From a virus (taxonomy: Duplodnaviria; Heunggongvirae; Uroviricota; Caudoviricetes), in the IMG/VR virus record IMGVR_UViG_2675903578_000012: a stretch of DNA of 5,688 nucleotides; one strand, written 5' to 3'. Positions 1 through 5,688 of this stretch are shown here, piece after piece (position 1 is the first letter of the stretch; every line of letters begins with the position of its first letter). Below the pieces are notes generated by a model. It did no database searches. It was given only the letters and a program-made list of their open reading frames with translations, and was not told the origin of the DNA. Position numbers and translations under genes: made by a program.

Positions 1-35
1 GAACAGGAGGGACAGCTGATAGAAACAGAAGCCAC
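1..35 (-). CDS. insA: IS1 InsA, N-terminal 11 codons only (partial, runs off the window)
   Basis: Minus-strand GTG at 35..33 is followed by GCT TCT GTT TCT ATC AGC TGT CCC TCC TGT, giving (M)ASVSISCPSC, the known InsA N-terminus. The rest of the gene lies outside the window. Confidence 0.7.
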   Translation of the reverse strand, partial: MASVSISCPSC

Positions 36-90
36 TGGAGCACCTCAAAAACACCATCATACACTAAATCAGTAAGTTGGCAGCATCACC
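1..90 (-). mobile_element. IS1 insertion sequence, left end only (terminal inverted repeat plus insA 5' region); element continues beyond the window start
   Basis: The reverse complement of 1..90 reads GGTGATGCTGCCAACTTACTGATTTAGTGTATGATGGTGTTTTTGAGGTGCTCCAGTGGCTTCTGTTTCTATCAGCTGTCCCTCCTGTTC. I recognise this as the canonical first ~90 bp of IS1, with the terminal inverted repeat GGTGATGCTGCCAACTTACTGAT at window 68..90. Identity stops at position 91/92. Recognition is from memory of the IS1 sequence, not a database search. Confidence 0.85.
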
Positions 91-91
91 C

Positions 92-202
92 CGCCACAGA
101 ACAATTATTGCTTTTGCCGTTGATGACAATAAAGTTTTTATCGCAGGCGTATACCACGGTGGGCAAATCTATGAAACCGATTTTTTATCCAGTGCACCGT
201 AA
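92..202 (+). pseudogene. 3' remnant of a RelE/ParE-superfamily-like toxin gene, apparently truncated by the IS1 insertion (36 codons plus TAA)
   Basis: The frame starting at 92 translates to RHRTIIAFAVDDNKVFIAGVYHGGQIYETDFLSSAP, with TAA at 200..202. The pattern (basic, hydrophobic run, V-D-D-x-K-V-F-I-x-x-V-x-H) resembles the C-terminal strand/His region of RelE/StbE/YoeB-type toxins. There is no start codon: the frame runs into the IS1 end at 90 and meets a stop inside IS1 at 65..67. The family call is by eye and tentative. Confidence 0.3.
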
Positions 203-242
203 AACCCCCATCCTTCAGGGCGTGGCGGATATCAAACTTTGG

Positions 243-1325
243 TCATTTTCTCTGGCTGATCTTTACCGGATAACCATCCCGAAGATCAATTAAGTGCTCC
301 GGTTCAGAAGCAAACCATGCATAAGATCCCCACGCCAATTCTGGTATTGCCTTTTTAAAAGGCAGAGCACTTCTGTCCATAAATGCCGTAAGGAATGCAA
401 GATTTTTCTCGCTGAACCCAGCGTCAATAGCCAAATGAGTGAGAGTAACTTTTCGTTCCCTGTTTATAGGCCCATCTGTCGCAACTACTTCAGTGAAAAC
501 TACAAGCATGTCCGAACCCGTTCGGTCCTCTCCCAAATCAATCAAAATAATATCTGGAAGTGCTTTTGAGGCATCAATATTCAGCCCCAATGCTTTTGCC
601 AATACATCATCCTGAGCAACAACTTTATTCCCGGATTCAGACAACCAGAGCACAGTTGGATTCTTAAGAAAATTAGGAGCAAAAACTTCGATGACGGCCT
701 TAGCTATTGTACTTGACGGGCCCGGAGCTAAAGTTCTCTTCTCTCCATTTGGGAAAGTGACGACTACGGCATCAGCAGCAATCACTGCCCCTGATTTCAA
801 TAAACGCAACCTAGCAAGAGCGGCTTTGTTCAAATGATTTTCTTGCCAGGAACTTATTGCACTCAGCAGCGAATCTCCTTCAAGCCCGGCATCAAAGAGT
901 GCTGCAAAAGAGCGATTCAAACTGTAACGAGGACGAGAGGATGTGGTGGGTATACCTTTACGCTCAACAATTGCATTGCAAGGTATTAGGCCATTTTTTA
1001 TAGTTTCATCACGTATTGGCTCACGCGTATTTTCCGCATACCATGCATCAGCAGGCCTTATCTTTTGTTTAGAGAAAGTCATCTTTACCCAGCTTTCTCT
1101 GGACGCATCATCAGTAAGAGCAGCCTGCGAATCTCCCATACTTACAACCTGGCTGGGCCTTATCCATCGCCCCAGCCCCTCAACCGCACCAGCATAAAAC
1201 ATGACAAAAATTGTTTTTGCAGCTATTTCCCGAATTAAATATCCACGATTCTCAGTCCCTTCAGGGAAAATTAATTGTAATCTTTCCCGGATAACATTCA
1301 ATGGGGGAACAACAGGCAGATTCAT
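243..1325 (-). CDS. Putative Type II restriction endonuclease (360 aa), possibly BsuBI/PstI-like; R subunit of an M-R operon
   Basis: A 1083-nt minus-strand ORF with ATG at 1325..1323 and TGA at 245..243. Its ATG overlaps the methyltransferase stop as ATGA, and a GGAG Shine-Dalgarno lies about 9 nt upstream inside the methyltransferase 3' end. The role is inferred mainly from this coupling to an N6-adenine methyltransferase; I could not pin down a clean PD-(D/E)xK motif by eye. The BsuBI/PstI family suggestion rests on recollection that this family is commonly paired with Eco57I/PstI-type methyltransferases, and is unverified. Confidence 0.6.
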   Translation of the reverse strand: MNLPVVPPLNVIRERLQLIFPEGTENRGYLIREIAAKTIFVMFYAGAVEGLGRWIRPSQVVSMGDSQAALTDDASRESWVKMTFSKQKIRPADAWYAENTREPIRDETIKNGLIPCNAIVERKGIPTTSSRPRYSLNRSFAALFDAGLEGDSLLSAISSWQENHLNKAALARLRLLKSGAVIAADAVVVTFPNGEKRTLAPGPSSTIAKAVIEVFAPNFLKNPTVLWLSESGNKVVAQDDVLAKALGLNIDASKALPDIILIDLGEDRTGSDMLVVFTEVVATDGPINRERKVTLTHLAIDAGFSEKNLAFLTAFMDRSALPFKKAIPELAWGSYAWFASEPEHLIDLRDGYPVKISQRK

Positions 1326-3217
1326 GCAATCATCACTCCATAGAAACCAGCGATAGTTCTCTCAATAATCCGTCTGTGGACGCCAGCATCAATTAACGAT
1401 TGAATCTCCATCACCTGCTCCAGAGAAGGCAACGGGATTGAATTCAATTCATAGGCCGAAACAGCAACACTTCCGCTTATACACCTGAACGCCCGATCGA
1501 CAACATGCGAATTAAGTAGCATATCAATAACATCAGGGCGAACCGCAGAGANNNNNNNNNNNNNNNNNNNNNNNNNNNNNNNNNNNNNNNNNNNNNNNNN
1601 NNNNNNNNNNNNNNNNNNNNNNNNNNNNNNNNNNNNNNNNNNNNNNNNNNNNNNNNNNNNNNNNNNNNNNNNNNNNNNNNNNNNNNNNNNNNNNNNNNNN
1701 NNNNNNNNNNNNNNNNNNNNNNNNNNNNNNNNNNNNNNNNNNNNNNNNNNNNNNNNNNNNNNNNNNNNNNNNNNNNNNNNNNNNNNNNNNNNNNNNNNNN
1801 NNNNNNNATGATTTTTTCTGTCTGCACTAAAACGAAAACCAGCTGAAGTTATTGATTCCGCCCAGACTAATGGGTAGCTATTTTTTCCTTTCGTCGTACG
1901 CAACTGCGACTTAAATCGATTCCAGACTAACTGACCTGTAGAGACTGAGTATCCCAGATCAGCTAAACGCGTAGACATCTGTTTTAATACATTAAGAAAA
2001 CAGGCATCATCTTTAACGCGTGGCAAAAGCCACGTTGCTCCACCTTTTTCTATATCAACATTACCTATTTTCTCAATTTTTGCTTTGTTCAACCCCTTAG
2101 GGACAAGTGAGGATACCTGGGCCCGAACTTTATGTTCTCCCGCCTTGAATGCTGTCAACATTGTTTCCTGGAGAACATCGTCAAAGACCCCATCCCTGTC
2201 AGTGACGAAATCAAGGGCATACGGAGTAGTTTTTTCGGTCAAAAGGGTTCGCAGCGCGGTGAAATACTGCCCACCAAGAAAAGAAGTTGGCGTAAGAAAT
2301 GCAATAACTCCTGTTTTCTCTTTAACCATGCGAACAGCTAAGTCGGTGAACAATCCATATAGATTTGCATGACCAAATAACGAACGAGAATATTTTTCTC
2401 TCGTTTTAATATCGAGAGTGACACGTCCGTAAGGCGGATTCCCTACCACAAGATCATAACCAGAAAATTTATCTTGCTGAAGCGCATCAGCAACAATAAT
2501 TGTATCTTCAGGCAATCTACGTTTTACCTTTACACATAGTGGCATTAGTACAGATTCGAGCAATACCAAACTCATCCAAGCCGCAAATGGATCGATCTCT
2601 ATCCCCTTTAAACGACGACTGATTCTCCTCAACATCCATTCAGGGGAAGACCCCTTGTCTTTTTTTAACATTCGAATGGCTACTGGTGCCAAAAATGCAC
2701 CGCCACCACACGCAGGATCAATAACCGATGCATGAGAAAAATCAACACCAGACTTTTCAGCCAGGTCCAAGAGACGCGCTACCAAAGGTGGGGGGGTATA
2801 GTAAGCCCCCAATTCCGAACGGTAAGCGGATGGCAGCATTACCGTATAAATTGACCCAATCAGATATCCAGCGTCCTCCGCCGGAAATTGAGCAATAAGC
2901 TCACCTGTTCGTTCAGCGAGCTCGCGTGCATCACATGGAATGTCTTCTATGTAAACAGTGTGCGGTACTGCCCTCATTTTAATGCTGCTTTTTTGCTTTT
3001 TTGCAAGGGTATCCCAATATGCAGCTACGATGCTGAAGCAGTATGAGCGGGCATGCATCAACCTTGACTGCCCGGTTTTGTAATTGCCCGCATAACCTTT
3101 GGCCATGGCTTTACAAGTTTGATATCTTTCCAGATTAGAAAACTCATTATCTGTAAAAAAATCAAAATGTTGCACATTCATAATGTAAAATCCTAATGTA
3201 TCAAACATGCGGGCCAT
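1322..3217 (-). CDS. N6-adenine DNA methyltransferase, gamma class (Eco57I/PstI/TaqI-like); M subunit; CDS spans an assembly gap, so true length is unknown
   Basis: The translated ORF contains GAYYTPPPLV (motif X-like), IDPACGGGAFL (motif I, SAM binding) and VVGNPPYGR (motif IV, the NPPY catalytic motif of amino-methyltransferases). The order X, I, IV followed by a C-terminal target-recognition region defines the gamma class. The start is ambiguous: ATG at 3217 is the longest with a weak RBS, ATG at 3208 is an alternative, and ATG at 3187 has an AGGA about 9 nt upstream. The stop TGA at 1324..1322 overlaps the R start. The frame across the N run cannot be verified. Confidence 0.8.
   Translation of the reverse strand: MARMFDTLGFYIMNVQHFDFFTDNEFSNLERYQTCKAMAKGYAGNYKTGQSRLMHARSYCFSIVAAYWDTLAKKQKSSIKMRAVPHTVYIEDIPCDARELAERTGELIAQFPAEDAGYLIGSIYTVMLPSAYRSELGAYYTPPPLVARLLDLAEKSGVDFSHASVIDPACGGGAFLAPVAIRMLKKDKGSSPEWMLRRISRRLKGIEIDPFAAWMSLVLLESVLMPLCVKVKRRLPEDTIIVADALQQDKFSGYDLVVGNPPYGRVTLDIKTREKYSRSLFGHANLYGLFTDLAVRMVKEKTGVIAFLTPTSFLGGQYFTALRTLLTEKTTPYALDFVTDRDGVFDDVLQETMLTAFKAGEHKVRAQVSSLVPKGLNKAKIEKIGNVDIEKGGATWLLPRVKDDACFLNVLKQMSTRLADLGYSVSTGQLVWNRFKSQLRTTKGKNSYPLVWAESITSAGFRFSADRKNHXXXXXXXXXXXXXXXXXXXXXXXXXXXXXXXXXXXXXXXXXXXXXXXXXXXXXXXXXXXXXXXXXXXXXXXXXXXXXXXXXXXXXXSAVRPDVIDMLLNSHVVDRAFRCISGSVAVSAYELNSIPLPSLEQVMEIQSLIDAGVHRRIIERTIAGFYGVMIA
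1552..1807. other. Assembly gap (256 N) inside the methyltransferase C-terminal / target-recognition region
   Basis: An uninterrupted run of n from 1552 to 1807. The X runs in the ORF track, and the minus-strand ORF 1477..1827, are artefacts of translating through it. Confidence 0.99.
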
Positions 3218-3431
3218 AACATCTCATGGTGGCGCATAGCAAACTGGCCCGAAGAATATCACGCACCAAGTCGATCTCATAACCCGTTATGACAATAAAT
3301 CTTTGTAGCTGAACTCACTTGGTGATTTGTCAATCATTCCTGGCCTCCAGTTCGTCCTGAATCTCTTTATCGAGTTCACCGTATTTGTTAGTCCTCATCA
3401 CTCACGACTTGACTTCCAGAAATAACCTTGA
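3218..3431 (-). promoter_or_regulatory. About 214-bp intergenic region upstream of the R-M operon; presumed location of the methyltransferase promoter or operator
   Basis: This is the only sizeable non-coding stretch between tightly packed minus-strand genes. It contains a 7-2-7 inverted repeat, TCATAAC-CC-GTTATGA, at 3277..3292. No convincing sigma70 -35/-10 pair could be fixed by eye: a consensus TTGACA on the minus strand at 3333..3328 lacks a matching -10 at 16-19 bp spacing. Confidence 0.3.
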
Positions 3432-3788
3432 TTATTCGGGGCTATATTTTGTCACCCTGCGTATCCGCGCTTTCGCATTACGCTCAATCTGGATTAGCTT
3501 TTCTATATTTTTTCGCCTTTCCCGCTCCTCCTGGCGCAAGAGCCTTACATCATCTGCCAGTCTGGTTTCTCTTTTCGCCACAGAGAGCATCCAGTCAAAT
3601 GGCTCCACAACTGCACCGCAAATTTTACAGCGGACCTGACGCTCTTTTTCGTCAACCCGGACAGAAGCGTGATGGCAATATGGTCTTTCCGATGGCTCAT
3701 AAAGAAAATTAACCTGATTACGAGGGTTATCCTCTTTTACCGGAAATAAAACAATATTGCTTAACTCATCTTCTGGTTTTATTTCCAT
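3432..3788 (-). CDS. Hypothetical phage protein (118 aa) with a zinc-ribbon-like C-x-HH ... C-x2-C motif and a basic, coiled C-terminus
   Basis: ATG at 3788..3786 is preceded by AAGGAG with a 6-nt spacer. The protein begins MEIKPEDEL and contains PYCHHASVRVDEKERQVRCKICGAV, then an Arg/Glu-rich tail. The ORF track's longer version starts at GTG 3845, directly after the upstream stop; this is possible but the ATG has the better RBS. Stop TAA at 3434..3432. Confidence 0.6.
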   Translation of the reverse strand: MEIKPEDELSNIVLFPVKEDNPRNQVNFLYEPSERPYCHHASVRVDEKERQVRCKICGAVVEPFDWMLSVAKRETRLADDVRLLRQEERERRKNIEKLIQIERNAKARIRRVTKYSPE

Positions 3789-3845
3789 GCTCCTCTCCTT
3801 TGATGCGAATGCCAGCGGTAATTGAAGCCTGATAGCTAATTTCAC

Positions 3846-4268
3846 TCACAGTACCGCCTCCTGAAAATCACCCTGATAGAAAGCCGGTACACGCTGCATA
3901 ACTTCACTCTTCCGGCACTCGCGACAGATTATGTTCTGATGTCTGTCGTAGCGGCGTATTTCTCCGTCCGGTAATGACCAGATAAGGTCCGGATCAACCA
4001 CAGATGGTTTCTTCAGCTTTGCCCTCGAGAGTTTTTTGCGGGCGTTTTGCCAGTCCTTACGAGCCTGTTCAGACGGGAATAACCCGTAGCCAGAGTTGTA
4101 TACATCCCCACTGGCAACCAGCTCTCTGGCGAGAACGCTTATTAAATATCTTGTCGCCCCGGTTTTAGCTTCCAGTTGTCGTAACGTCTCGCGCCCACTC
4201 TGGCGTACGAGTTCAACAACCTGCCCCTTAATTTTTTCCCGCTCTTCCTGTGTAAATACTTTTGCCAT
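3846..4268 (-). CDS. Hypothetical phage protein (140 aa) with one CxxC pair near the C-terminus
   Basis: ATG at 4268..4266 (MAKVFTQEEREKIKG...) lies 15 nt downstream of the upstream gene's stop, preceded by a weak G-rich RBS (GGGGG). The TTG at 4283 used by the track is probably an over-extension. The protein contains ICRECRKS. Stop TGA at 3848..3846. Confidence 0.6.
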   Translation of the reverse strand: MAKVFTQEEREKIKGQVVELVRQSGRETLRQLEAKTGATRYLISVLARELVASGDVYNSGYGLFPSEQARKDWQNARKKLSRAKLKKPSVVDPDLIWSLPDGEIRRYDRHQNIICRECRKSEVMQRVPAFYQGDFQEAVL

Positions 4269-4283
4269 AAGCGCCCCCGGCAA

Positions 4284-5009
4284 TCACTTTTCCGACACAA
4301 TACGACCGGAGGAATCGACAATCTGTCGAACAATATCCCGGTGCTTGTTCAGCTCCCGCAACGCGGCGCAGACACGCTCCCACTTCTGGACATGACTTTT
4401 CGCCCGACGCAGTTCGCGGTTTGCCATATGCAGCGATGGTAAAACCAGGTCATCCGCTTGCGTTTCGGTGAACGATGGCAACGACTGCACAATGTCCGCC
4501 ACAGTTTCTGTTTTAATTTCTTCCTGTGTTGCAGCTTCCTGTACCGGTAACGCAACACCTGCTGGCTGAGGAAAGACTTTACCATCCGTTTCCGCTATGG
4601 ATGCGGCTTTCGGCTCTGCCGGTAAATCAGCGCCCGGTATGCAGTACCGAAATTTACCGCCCTGATTCACGCGAATCAGACGCCCTTTGCTGATTGCCAT
4701 GGCCAGCGATGAATTCGCCCGGCGGGAGGTAATCCCGAACATCAGTGCCAGCTCATCCGCCGTTTGTGGGCCATGTTGTTCAATCGCCTCAGTCAGCATT
4801 TGCGCTGTCACTTTCGGTACCGGTGACACTGGTTCACTTTCACCAGCCTGAATCAGCCACCACATCGAACCCTTGTTATCCGCTTCACCACGGCGCTTCA
4901 GTTTCCACAGTTCGTTGACCGCATCTTCACGGCTGATTCCAAGGCGGGACGCCACCACATGTGAAGAGGCTCTTTTCAGTGCTTTCAGTGCGTCAAATAC
5001 AGTTTCCAT
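4284..5009 (-). CDS. Phage hypothetical protein (241 aa), apparently two winged-helix-like modules followed by an acidic linker and a basic C-terminal helix; of the kind found just downstream of dnaC-like genes in enterobacterial lambdoid prophages
   Basis: ATG at 5009..5007 ([13 protein letters not shown]...) is preceded by GGAGG with an 8-nt spacer. The TTG at 5027 in the ORF track is an over-extension. Segments such as [20 protein letters not shown] and [23 protein letters not shown] look like HTH/wing elements; the fold call is by eye. Stop TGA at 4286..4284. Confidence 0.7.
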
Positions 5010-5030
5010 TAAAACATCCTCCAACAAAAA

Positions 5031-5688
5031 TTACTTCACAACTCCCGGAAAGCTGACATTTGAACGCCAGCTATCCCAGTTAAACGTCACCCACCGACAA
5101 CCGTTCATGGTCATGCGGTCCATAATCCTCTCACCAAGAAGCGTGCTCATTGCGGCATGATTCAGGTTTGTTAACATCCCGACACTGCACAGTGATGCTG
5201 TCCGGCGATCAATTATCTGGTGCAATACCACCTGCTCGTTTTTCGTCTCCCGCTGAATGCCTATTTCATCCAGGACCAGCAAATCAACCCCGCAAAGCTC
5301 CTGTAAAAATTTTTCACCGGATTTGCCGTTGTCGTAGCTGTCATGCAACACGCTCATGACATCAGACTCGGTGACGATAATCACGCTGCGCCCCTTCGCC
5401 ATCAGCCGGTTACCCATCGCCGCTGCAAGGTGATTTTTCCCGGTGCCGGTTTTACCGCTGAACACAAAATTCGTGCACCCGGTCATCAGTTCGTCAGCTA
5501 TGGATTTGGCCTGGCTCAGCGCGTATTTTTGCCCGTCGTTCTGCACCTGATAATTCGCAAACGAGCATTTGCTGTGCAGAGGCTGGATGCCCGAACGATT
5601 CAGGATTTTTTCCACCCGCAACTGGCGATTCTGGCGGTTAATCTCCTCGCTGCGTTTTCGTCCTTCAGCAAGTTGCCATTCCCGCCAC
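5031..5688 (-). CDS. DnaC-like replicative helicase loader (phage replication protein, AAA+ ATPase), 5'-partial; the N-terminus lies beyond the window end
   Basis: The protein shows Walker A FSGKTGTGKNHLAAAMG and Walker B LLVLDEIG. LNRSGIQPLHSKCSFANY closely parallels the E. coli DnaC segment FNRSGIRPLHQNCSFENY, and the C-terminus FNWDSWRS matches DnaC FNWDSYRS. The frame stays open from 5621 to 5688 (reading ...WREWQLAEGRKRSEEINRQNRQL-RVEKIL...), so the track's TTG start at 5621 is internal. Stop TAA at 5033..5031. Confidence 0.9.
   Translation of the reverse strand, partial: WREWQLAEGRKRSEEINRQNRQLRVEKILNRSGIQPLHSKCSFANYQVQNDGQKYALSQAKSIADELMTGCTNFVFSGKTGTGKNHLAAAMGNRLMAKGRSVIIVTESDVMSVLHDSYDNGKSGEKFLQELCGVDLLVLDEIGIQRETKNEQVVLHQIIDRRTASLCSVGMLTNLNHAAMSTLLGERIMDRMTMNGCRWVTFNWDSWRSNVSFPGVVK

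Follow-up and report, generated by a model that had tools for sequence, protein, structure and literature searches.

Type II restriction-modification (R-M) systems borne by prophages are well documented, PstI-type systems of Escherichia and Shigella phages included, and their carriage as temperate-phage cargo beside toxin-antitoxin modules is a textbook arrangement. One of them, M.EcoGIII/R.EcoGIII, is located in the Shiga toxin 2a (Stx2a) prophage of Escherichia coli O104:H4, and also in O145:H28 RM13514, and recognizes CTGCAG; the Stx-phage endonuclease copy of O104:H4 and O145 has been reported to be biochemically active (PMC3893438). Here, we analyzed a gene pair consisting of a DNA methyltransferase (M) and an endonuclease (R) in a 5,688-nucleotide (nt) stretch of Caudoviricetes DNA (IMG/VR record IMGVR_UViG_2675903578_000012), the whole of which is referred to below as the window. 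An earlier note, made from the letters of the window alone, had described the pair as a complete, AT-rich Type II R-M cassette acquired horizontally by a prophage. The R-M system is real, the interpretation is correct, and both were already known, R and M being named in public records as 'BsuBI/PstI family type II restriction endonuclease' and 'N-6 DNA methylase', respectively. Specifically, we assign a probability of roughly 85% to the reading that this is a Type II (IIP-like) M-R operon of the BsuBI/PstI family, carried as cargo by a Rac/Qin-type lambdoid prophage that is now a remnant bounded by the insertion sequence (IS) IS1.

Like the pair in the window, the Stx2a pair is prophage-borne, consists of two genes in the order M then R, is of Type II, and occurs in Escherichia/Shigella. 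Its R has the same two Pfam domains, and its M is homologous to ours from the NPPY motif through the C-terminal region. The identity between the two systems is, however, only 26–28%: M was 26% identical to the BsuBI-type methylase of Stx phage ArgO145 (E 7e-27, from NPPY to the C terminus) and R about 27% identical to Stx-phage endonucleases (E 1e-14). Moreover, the M studied here is ~110–120 amino acids (aa) longer at its N terminus and the R is ~45 aa longer. The Stx2a system lies directly downstream of cI, in the immunity region, whereas the present cassette follows the replication genes, in the nin-region slot, and CTGCAG specificity was tested for the Stx2a pair, whereas for the present pair it is predicted from distant homology. 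Among the loci that we compared (given L numbers where needed), ArgO145 (L013, 4358–6778) and L016 have the PstI-type system directly downstream of cI in Stx2a phages, and in ArgO145 R is frameshifted while M is intact, an orphan-methylase state.

Two further points of comparison are SdaI and the enzymes that gave the family its name. SdaI (PDB 2IXS; CCTGCAGG) has in common with R the layout of a winged helix-turn-helix (wHTH) domain and a PD-(D/E)XK domain as well as the motif PD...E...GP...R, but the two are only about 20% identical, K251 of SdaI corresponds to Ala282 in R, and the site of SdaI is 8 bp long. PstI (Providencia stuartii) and BsuBI (Bacillus subtilis) are the name-givers of the Pfam families of R, and in their systems, as here, a gamma-class N6-adenine methylase is paired with this endonuclease fold. 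Both systems have smaller proteins (R about 316–326 aa, M about 500 aa), and the two PstI genes diverge in transcription, unlike M and R in the window, which are co-directional and overlapping.

By its sequence, R is a BsuBI/PstI-family Type II restriction endonuclease. An N-terminal wHTH recognition domain (BsuBI_PstI_RE_N, PF17728; residues 10–172, E 1e-30, 106.6 bits with a cutoff of 27) is followed by a C-terminal PD-(D/E)XK nuclease domain (BsuBI_PstI_RE, PF06616; residues 188–349, E 9e-45, 152.2 bits, cutoff 27), and over its full length the protein matched PADLOC REase_II PDLC03589 (E 3e-128), a model derived from REBASE. PF06616 has been catalogued as a Type II clade within the PD-(D/E)XK superfamily (PMC3424549). 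Residues P257-D258 and E279 aligned with P232-D233 and E248 of SdaI and with the PD...E of the Stx-phage enzyme, were invariant in an alignment of 34 subfamily sequences, and were at least 98% conserved in 120 homologs. At the position of SdaI K251, R has Ala282, and hence no Lys; this Ala is invariant in the subfamily, and downstream of it R291-K292 are conserved. We considered the missing Lys as a sign of inactivity and rejected it, given the invariant Ala and the active Stx-phage enzyme, which has Thr there; since that enzyme is also without Lys, the position is not diagnostic. SdaI is the sole related solved structure, matching residues 96–349 of R by sequence (E 2e-16), and a Foldseek search of the PDB with the AlphaFold model of R likewise returned 2ixs_A as the only significant match (E 7e-12, probability 1.00, 353 columns), with a poor superposition (template modeling score 0.35–0.40) and moderate model confidence (predicted local distance difference test score 69).

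M contained the Pfam domains Eco57I methylase (E 1e-13) and N6_Mtase (E 1e-9), both above gathering scores, and matched PADLOC MTase_II PDLC03338 end to end (E 2e-300). Motif I (DPACGGGAF, residues 167–175 of the 610-aa protein) is followed by motif IV (NPPYG, residues 260–264) and then by a C-terminal target-recognition region, an order that places M in the gamma class. The R-M homology that the earlier note had presumed for both proteins is thus borne out by Pfam, by the full-length PADLOC matches, and by the SdaI structure. M and R are separate, adjacent genes on the same strand, in the Type II (IIP-like) layout, and the M stop and R start overlap by 4 nt (ATGA, 1322–1325). All sizeable open reading frames (ORFs) of the window are on the minus strand, transcribed in the order dnaC-like gene, DUF1627 gene, DUF977 gene, small Cys-rich gene, a gap of 214 nt, M, and R. 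Both the ORF list and Pfam confirmed the placement of the pair directly downstream of a DnaC-like gene and three phage genes on the same strand.

As for the cassette being 'complete', the pair is real, but completeness cannot be read from the window, in which 256 N (1552–1807) lie inside M. Four loci (L003, L009, L010, L011) matched the window at 100% identity on either side of this mask, the IS1 junction included; in all four the masked stretch measures 193 bp and M reads through as one ORF of 610 aa. Because the mask covers part of the gene, it is by inference from these identical genomes that M is taken to be intact. The surplus of 63 nt (256 versus 193) is a multiple of three, so either the mask is not base-for-base or it stands for an in-frame insertion of 21 codons, which, if real, would fall in the target-recognition region of M. 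The start of M also has two candidates, on which gene callers differ: ATG 3217 (610 aa) and a second ATG at 3181 (598 aa). The latter is probably the true start, since the homology of a Serratia cassette begins exactly there (MNVQ..., with AGGA ahead); in that cassette, an in-frame stop lies four codons upstream of the equivalent ATG. Within M, a G7 run at ~2790–2796 (C7 on the coding strand) encodes a YYTPPP segment. In one locus (L005), the only such place read, this run is one base shorter and M is split into 133 and 428 aa. We rejected the split as a sign of decay, as it is a 1-nt loss from C7 and several more genes of that assembly are broken; the probable cause is an assembly or sequencing error rather than phase variation.

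The cassette was present in just 2 of 5426 complete E. coli genomes (L001 and L002), at 99.4–99.9% DNA identity, in both cases in a lambdoid prophage adjoining potC/potD. In gene order, these prophages have int, xis, exo, dicB, repressor (cI), cro, ydaT, O, dnaC-like, DUF977, the small gene, M, and R, and after R come parE-parD (on the other strand), a small gene, DUF968, rusA, Q, tRNAs, and lysis genes. L001 runs on through terminase, portal, capsid, and tail genes and is apparently near-complete; the late region of L002 is IS-disrupted, with partial terminase and portal genes, and a further locus, L007, keeps Q, lysis, terminase, and portal genes. The occurrence of the same M-R pair inside these lambdoid prophages shows that the flanking genes are of prophage origin, as the earlier note had held, rather than plasmid-borne or chromosomal, and the window genes at 3846–5688 match Rac-type phages and prophages. 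Two relatives without the R-M system (L014 and L015) share the backbone on both sides at 82–95% identity. Homology to them stops at ~3417–3428, only a few nt beyond the stop codon of the small Cys-rich gene, and resumes ~50 nt beyond the gene preceding DUF968; in between they have hok, DUF7167, and small ORFs instead, and in L014 also IS679. The small Cys-rich gene is present in the R-M-less prophages at 93–95% identity and is therefore outside the R-M cargo. A 3.8-kb segment of parDE, R, M, and leader fills an exchangeable cargo slot, very probably the variable nin region between the replication genes and Q of a Rac/Qin-type lambdoid prophage. Horizontal acquisition is supported by these relatives, which share the backbone and carry hok/DUF7167 in place of the segment.

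The parD-parE pair of L001 (19538–20112), L002, and L007 is convergent to R and 40 nt away from it; parD, which matches NCBIfam TIGR02606, is ahead of parE, and the RelE/ParE toxin is 103 aa long in L001 and L002. Two addiction-type modules, parDE and the R-M system, hence occupy one cargo slot in these three loci. The toxin-antitoxin cargo of the slot (hok in L014 and L015; parDE in L001, L002, and L007) has the same position, between the replication genes and DUF968-rusA-Q, and the same selfish 'addiction' logic as the R-M pair, and is likewise exchangeable between homologous prophages, although the biochemistry differs (toxin and antitoxin versus methylase and nuclease). Qin of E. coli K-12 carries hokD and relBE in this slot.

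The pair is a distant member of the PstI/BsuBI family and falls in a subfamily that is large and tightly conserved: R had more than 3700 matches, the top 120 all at least 63% identical, in Enterobacterales, Burkholderia, Pseudomonas, and others. Kluyvera (R 89% identical) and Citrobacter sedlakii (86%) have the cassette in the same slot of lambdoid prophages, and in Serratia marcescens (75%) it is part of a P2-like prophage, where gpA and the portal gene flank it. At the DNA level, these copies match only M, R, and at most a short leader; the match extends 123 nt (Kluyvera), 73 nt (Citrobacter), or 0 nt (Serratia) upstream of the annotated M ATG and ends within a few to ~40 nt of the R stop. 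From these limits in three genera, the portable unit is about 238–3340, with parDE as an independent neighbor; the Kluyvera, Citrobacter, and Serratia cassettes have other neighbors (DinI, a RecA-like gene) rather than parDE, which indicates that parDE and the R-M system move independently. Plasmid origin was rejected, as the cassette was on no enterobacterial plasmid and the only plasmid copies, on conjugative plasmids of Burkholderia glumae, are distant (65% DNA identity). No deposited phage genome contained the cassette at the DNA level. The N termini of the ~360-aa subfamily are longer than those of PstI-size enzymes, and PADLOC has separate models for this subfamily (PDLC03589/PDLC03338) and for the ~317/494-aa PstI-size group (PDLC03420/PDLC03227). 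In addition, both M (residues ~129–361) and R (96–349) matched single models of ~840 aa, PADLOC PDLC03359 (840 aa) and PHROG 1639 (838 aa), from which it follows that relatives with M and R fused in a single chain exist. YenI-type enzymes are an example of such a fusion.

On the strength of the exact R protein, the window is Shigella sonnei DNA. The index lists this protein in 4192 blocks, corresponding to thousands of assemblies; R and M are both named as S. sonnei proteins by their sources, and both genes were intact in nearly all places read. An exact scan of genome contigs for the IS1/parE junction, in contrast, gave no match. Whether the prophage is intact had been left open by the earlier note; here it is not. 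Downstream, the window-identical genomes have the order R, 40 nt, parE stub, IS1, and ydfI, with parD gone, and after R none of Q, lysis, terminase, or structural genes was found in them. In L003, the IS1 runs on as InsA/InsB (Pfam Zn_ribbon_InsA, HTH_Tnp_IS1, and DDE_Tnp_IS1). The flanks of this R-proximal IS1 do not share a 9-bp duplication and its far side is chromosomal (ydfI, ydfZ, ydfH, ydfG, dcp), which marks it as a joint, formed by deletion or recombination, at which the stretch from parE up to and including the late genes was lost. On its upstream side, the remnant comprises YdaT, cro, repressor, a second ParE/PaaA2 pair, and DUF1391, and then another IS1 in the same orientation. What is left is an IS1-bounded fragment of ~9.5 kb that keeps the immunity and replication genes and the R-M cargo, at what is presumably the Qin locus of the K-12 map. 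With the prophage reduced to a remnant without late genes, the R-M system now behaves as a fixed chromosomal locus.

L003 has three IS1 copies in direct orientation (958, 11236, and 20226) within 21 kb, the first two of which bracket the remnant, and this bracketing explains why short-read contigs with R are mostly 2–10 kb long. We saw no evidence in L003 that this arrangement, which resembles a compound transposon, is mobile. A survey of 994 S. sonnei genomes counted 982 Type II systems and described R-M content as 'highly uniform' (PMC13293514). The paper does not name the locus, but its counts fit the present one, which is probably the single Type II system that nearly all S. sonnei genomes have.

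Table 1. Features located in the window, with strand and basis of assignment.
Feature	Coordinates	Strand	Basis
IS1 left end (inverted repeat and insA start)	1–90	-	Homology to L001/L002 ends at window 91
parE toxin 3′ remnant, last 36 codons and stop, convergent with R	91–202	+	Aligns to parE end in L001/L002 (19801–20112)
R, BsuBI/PstI-family Type II endonuclease, 360 aa	243–1325	-	Pfam, PADLOC, SdaI match
M, gamma-class N6-adenine DNA methyltransferase	1322–3217	-	Pfam, PADLOC, motifs I and IV
Leader/intergenic region moving with cassette, 214 nt	3218–3431	-	DNA homology to Kluyvera/Citrobacter cassettes
Small Cys-rich zinc-ribbon-like backbone prophage gene	3432–3845	-	PHROG 1621; present in R-M-less prophages
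DUF977/LygF gene	3846–4283	-	Pfam DUF977 (E 3e-30), PHROG 142
DUF1627/YdaW-like gene	4284–5027	-	Pfam DUF1627 (E 4e-93), PHROG 630
DnaC/IstB-like helicase loader (listed ORF 5031–5621), 5′ end beyond window	5031–5688	-	Pfam IstB_IS21 (E 2e-19), PHROG 50

In the proposed mechanism, M, through its DPACGGGAF and NPPYG motifs, would methylate the N6 of adenine in a short host site, probably a palindrome and possibly CTGCAG-like. R would read the same site, presumably as a dimer, via its N-terminal winged helix, and its C-terminal PD-(D/E)XK domain would cut the site where unmethylated. The order with M first and the ATGA overlap suggest coupled translation, such that protection may be established with or before cutting. 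The expected effects are restriction of unmethylated incoming phage or plasmid DNA and post-segregational killing upon loss of the locus. It is by analogy that we infer these defense and addiction roles, as well as expression, activity, and the recognition sequence.

Several observations weigh against the cassette being a working, CTGCAG-specific R-M system. The identity of 26–28% to PstI-type enzymes and the poorly aligned N terminus of R mean that the specificity may differ, and the window itself has N in place of part of M. Eight CTGCAG sites were present in the surrounding 21 kb where ~5 were expected, giving no sign of avoidance; the window has 0 sites versus about 1.3 expected, and as a guide to specificity these counts are uninformative. 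A scan for consensus sigma-70 promoters gave no match on the leader's coding strand, and a weight-matrix scan of the leader gave as its best candidate an extended -10 element, TGaTATTCT, with a score of 7.8 compared with a background median of 7.1. In the literature, we found no methylome or restriction data for S. sonnei. A P2-like phage that was grown on K-12 and whose DNA is cut by PstI had a greater plating efficiency on two strains of S. sonnei than on K-12 (PMC6823313), and S. sonnei 866 has been described as highly phage-susceptible (PMC6128377); these plating observations are weak and confounded, and argue slightly against strong CTGCAG-specific restriction. Elsewhere, a preprint on the Klebsiella pneumoniae methylome makes no mention of PstI or CTGCAG, and a review of PD-(D/E)XK nucleases only lists the family.

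It is possible, though less likely than not, that the R-M system is active and recognizes a sequence other than CTGCAG, the ~360-aa subfamily being a specificity group of its own, as is SdaI (CCTGCAGG). Besides the low identity to CTGCAG enzymes, this would be in keeping with the N-terminal extension of ~45 residues in R, with a recognition domain that aligns poorly with both the EcoGIII-like enzyme and SdaI, with the subfamily having its own PADLOC models apart from those of the PstI-size group, and with SdaI being a member, so that the family already holds more than one specificity. That a K-12-grown phage with PstI sites was not obviously restricted in S. sonnei points the same way. However, M aligns with the BsuBI-type methylase over the whole C-terminal (target-recognition) region, beyond the catalytic core, and to our knowledge all characterized family members share a CTGCAG core.

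The guanine-cytosine (GC) content of R, M, and the intergenic region was 0.443, 0.436, and 0.435, respectively, versus 0.511, 0.532, and 0.520 for the DUF977, DUF1627, and dnaC genes, and at third codon positions (GC3) it was 0.355 and 0.377 for R and M versus 0.527, 0.528, and 0.635 for DUF977, DUF1627, and dnaC. The difference between cassette and replication genes was significant on base counts (chi-square p = 2e-8), as it was across 60-nt lines (medians of 0.43 in R and 0.46 in M versus 0.53 in the replication genes; Mann-Whitney p = 2e-6). The discontinuity that the earlier note had spotted between the cassette and its upstream genes therefore holds on sliding-window and codon-position calculations, and its figure of ~55% GC at 4381–4440 is exactly 0.550; 'AT-rich', in contrast, overstated a cassette with 44% GC, about 8 points under its neighbors. 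We think it somewhat unlikely that this dip is not a mark of separate acquisition but the general low and patchy GC of lambdoid accessory regions, an explanation that would be compatible with the R-M operon as prophage cargo. In its favor, the small Cys-rich backbone gene, which is shared with R-M-less prophages, also has a low GC of 0.449, so that the composition boundary is ~400 nt off the homology boundary; the parE remnant is at 0.42, and in L001 parE is at 0.429 and Q at 0.459, with parD at 0.523. Against it, M and R have a GC3 (0.36–0.38) far below the values for the replication genes and for the host flank, and comparative evidence shows M-R as an exchangeable module. Because of that evidence, the conclusion of acquisition is independent of GC.

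A silent or decayed relic, in which the cassette is unexpressed in the repressed remnant or R is inactive, appears improbable to us; such a cassette would serve for neither defense nor addiction and would persist only because it is recent and neutral. The leader has no convincing sigma-70 promoter, the genome is under IS-driven decay (three IS1 within 21 kb), R has Ala at the position equivalent to SdaI K251, and the phage susceptibility of S. sonnei and the unrestricted K-12-grown phage mentioned above, anecdotal as they are, would fit. Weak promoters are nevertheless usual in R-M operons, and neither ORF is shortened, thousands of assemblies having both in identical form although pseudogenes arise readily in this genome; a split M was met in only one place, at the C7 homopolymer of L005. 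Furthermore, R retains all of the subfamily-invariant residues, the Ala in question among them, and the active Stx-phage enzyme has Thr there. As to control of the operon, the proximal ~75–125 nt of the leader (about 3218–3340) presumably holds the promoter, and the extended -10 candidate is conserved in three genera. No coding-strand ORF of at least 40 aa that could be a controller (C) gene was found in 3218–3431 or between M and R, and C-box or operator repeats in the leader were limited to short, chance-level ones. The leader also contains a 16-codon minus-strand ORF (MIDKSPSEFSYKDLLS) at 3287–3337, with GGAGG ahead and with an exact TTGACA hexamer overlapping it; since the Kluyvera leader does not conserve this ORF, it is probably spurious.

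Arrival of the R-M system at this site on its own, by an IS1 compound transposon or a plasmid, is highly improbable: directly repeated IS1 copies do bracket the ~9.5-kb remnant, IS-linked R-M movement is documented (PMC3031569), and related cassettes are on conjugative Burkholderia plasmids, but the cassette lies between the same phage genes, at 99.4–99.9% DNA identity, in lambdoid prophages without these IS1 copies (L001, L002, and L007), the R-proximal IS1 has no target duplication and interrupts parE, as expected of a deletion joint, and no enterobacterial plasmid has the cassette.

For the prophage-borne M-R operon favored here, consequences beyond annotation are few, as hidden Markov model libraries for defense systems cover both proteins end to end. 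The specificity of this system in S. sonnei would matter for transformation efficiency, for the host range of phage therapy, and for typing of the pathogen by methylation, and the locus illustrates neatly how a selfish module can outlast the phage that brought it in. A more far-reaching and rather doubtful proposal is that the subfamily does not read CTGCAG, that this may be the sole near-universal Type II system of S. sonnei, and that post-segregational killing could explain how the 9.5-kb fragment survived IS1-driven genome reduction; speculatively, addiction might also explain why the endpoint of the IS1 deletion stops 150 bp short of R.

Of the remaining parts of the window, no Rfam match for a structured RNA at E ≤ 0.1 was present anywhere. 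PHROG 142, to which the DUF977/LygF gene belongs, is annotated as 'Ren-like exclusion protein', and PADLOC has no model for the gene; given that label, a second exclusion function may adjoin the R-M system. The product of the small Cys-rich gene matched PHROG 1621, a family with no assigned function, over residues 20–134 (E 2e-54) and has a CxxC-type zinc-ribbon-like motif. This gene was listed as a 137-aa ORF starting with GTG and is annotated by PGAP as 118 aa, and its start is probably ATG 3788 (118 aa), after the ribosome-binding site AGGAGAGGAG.

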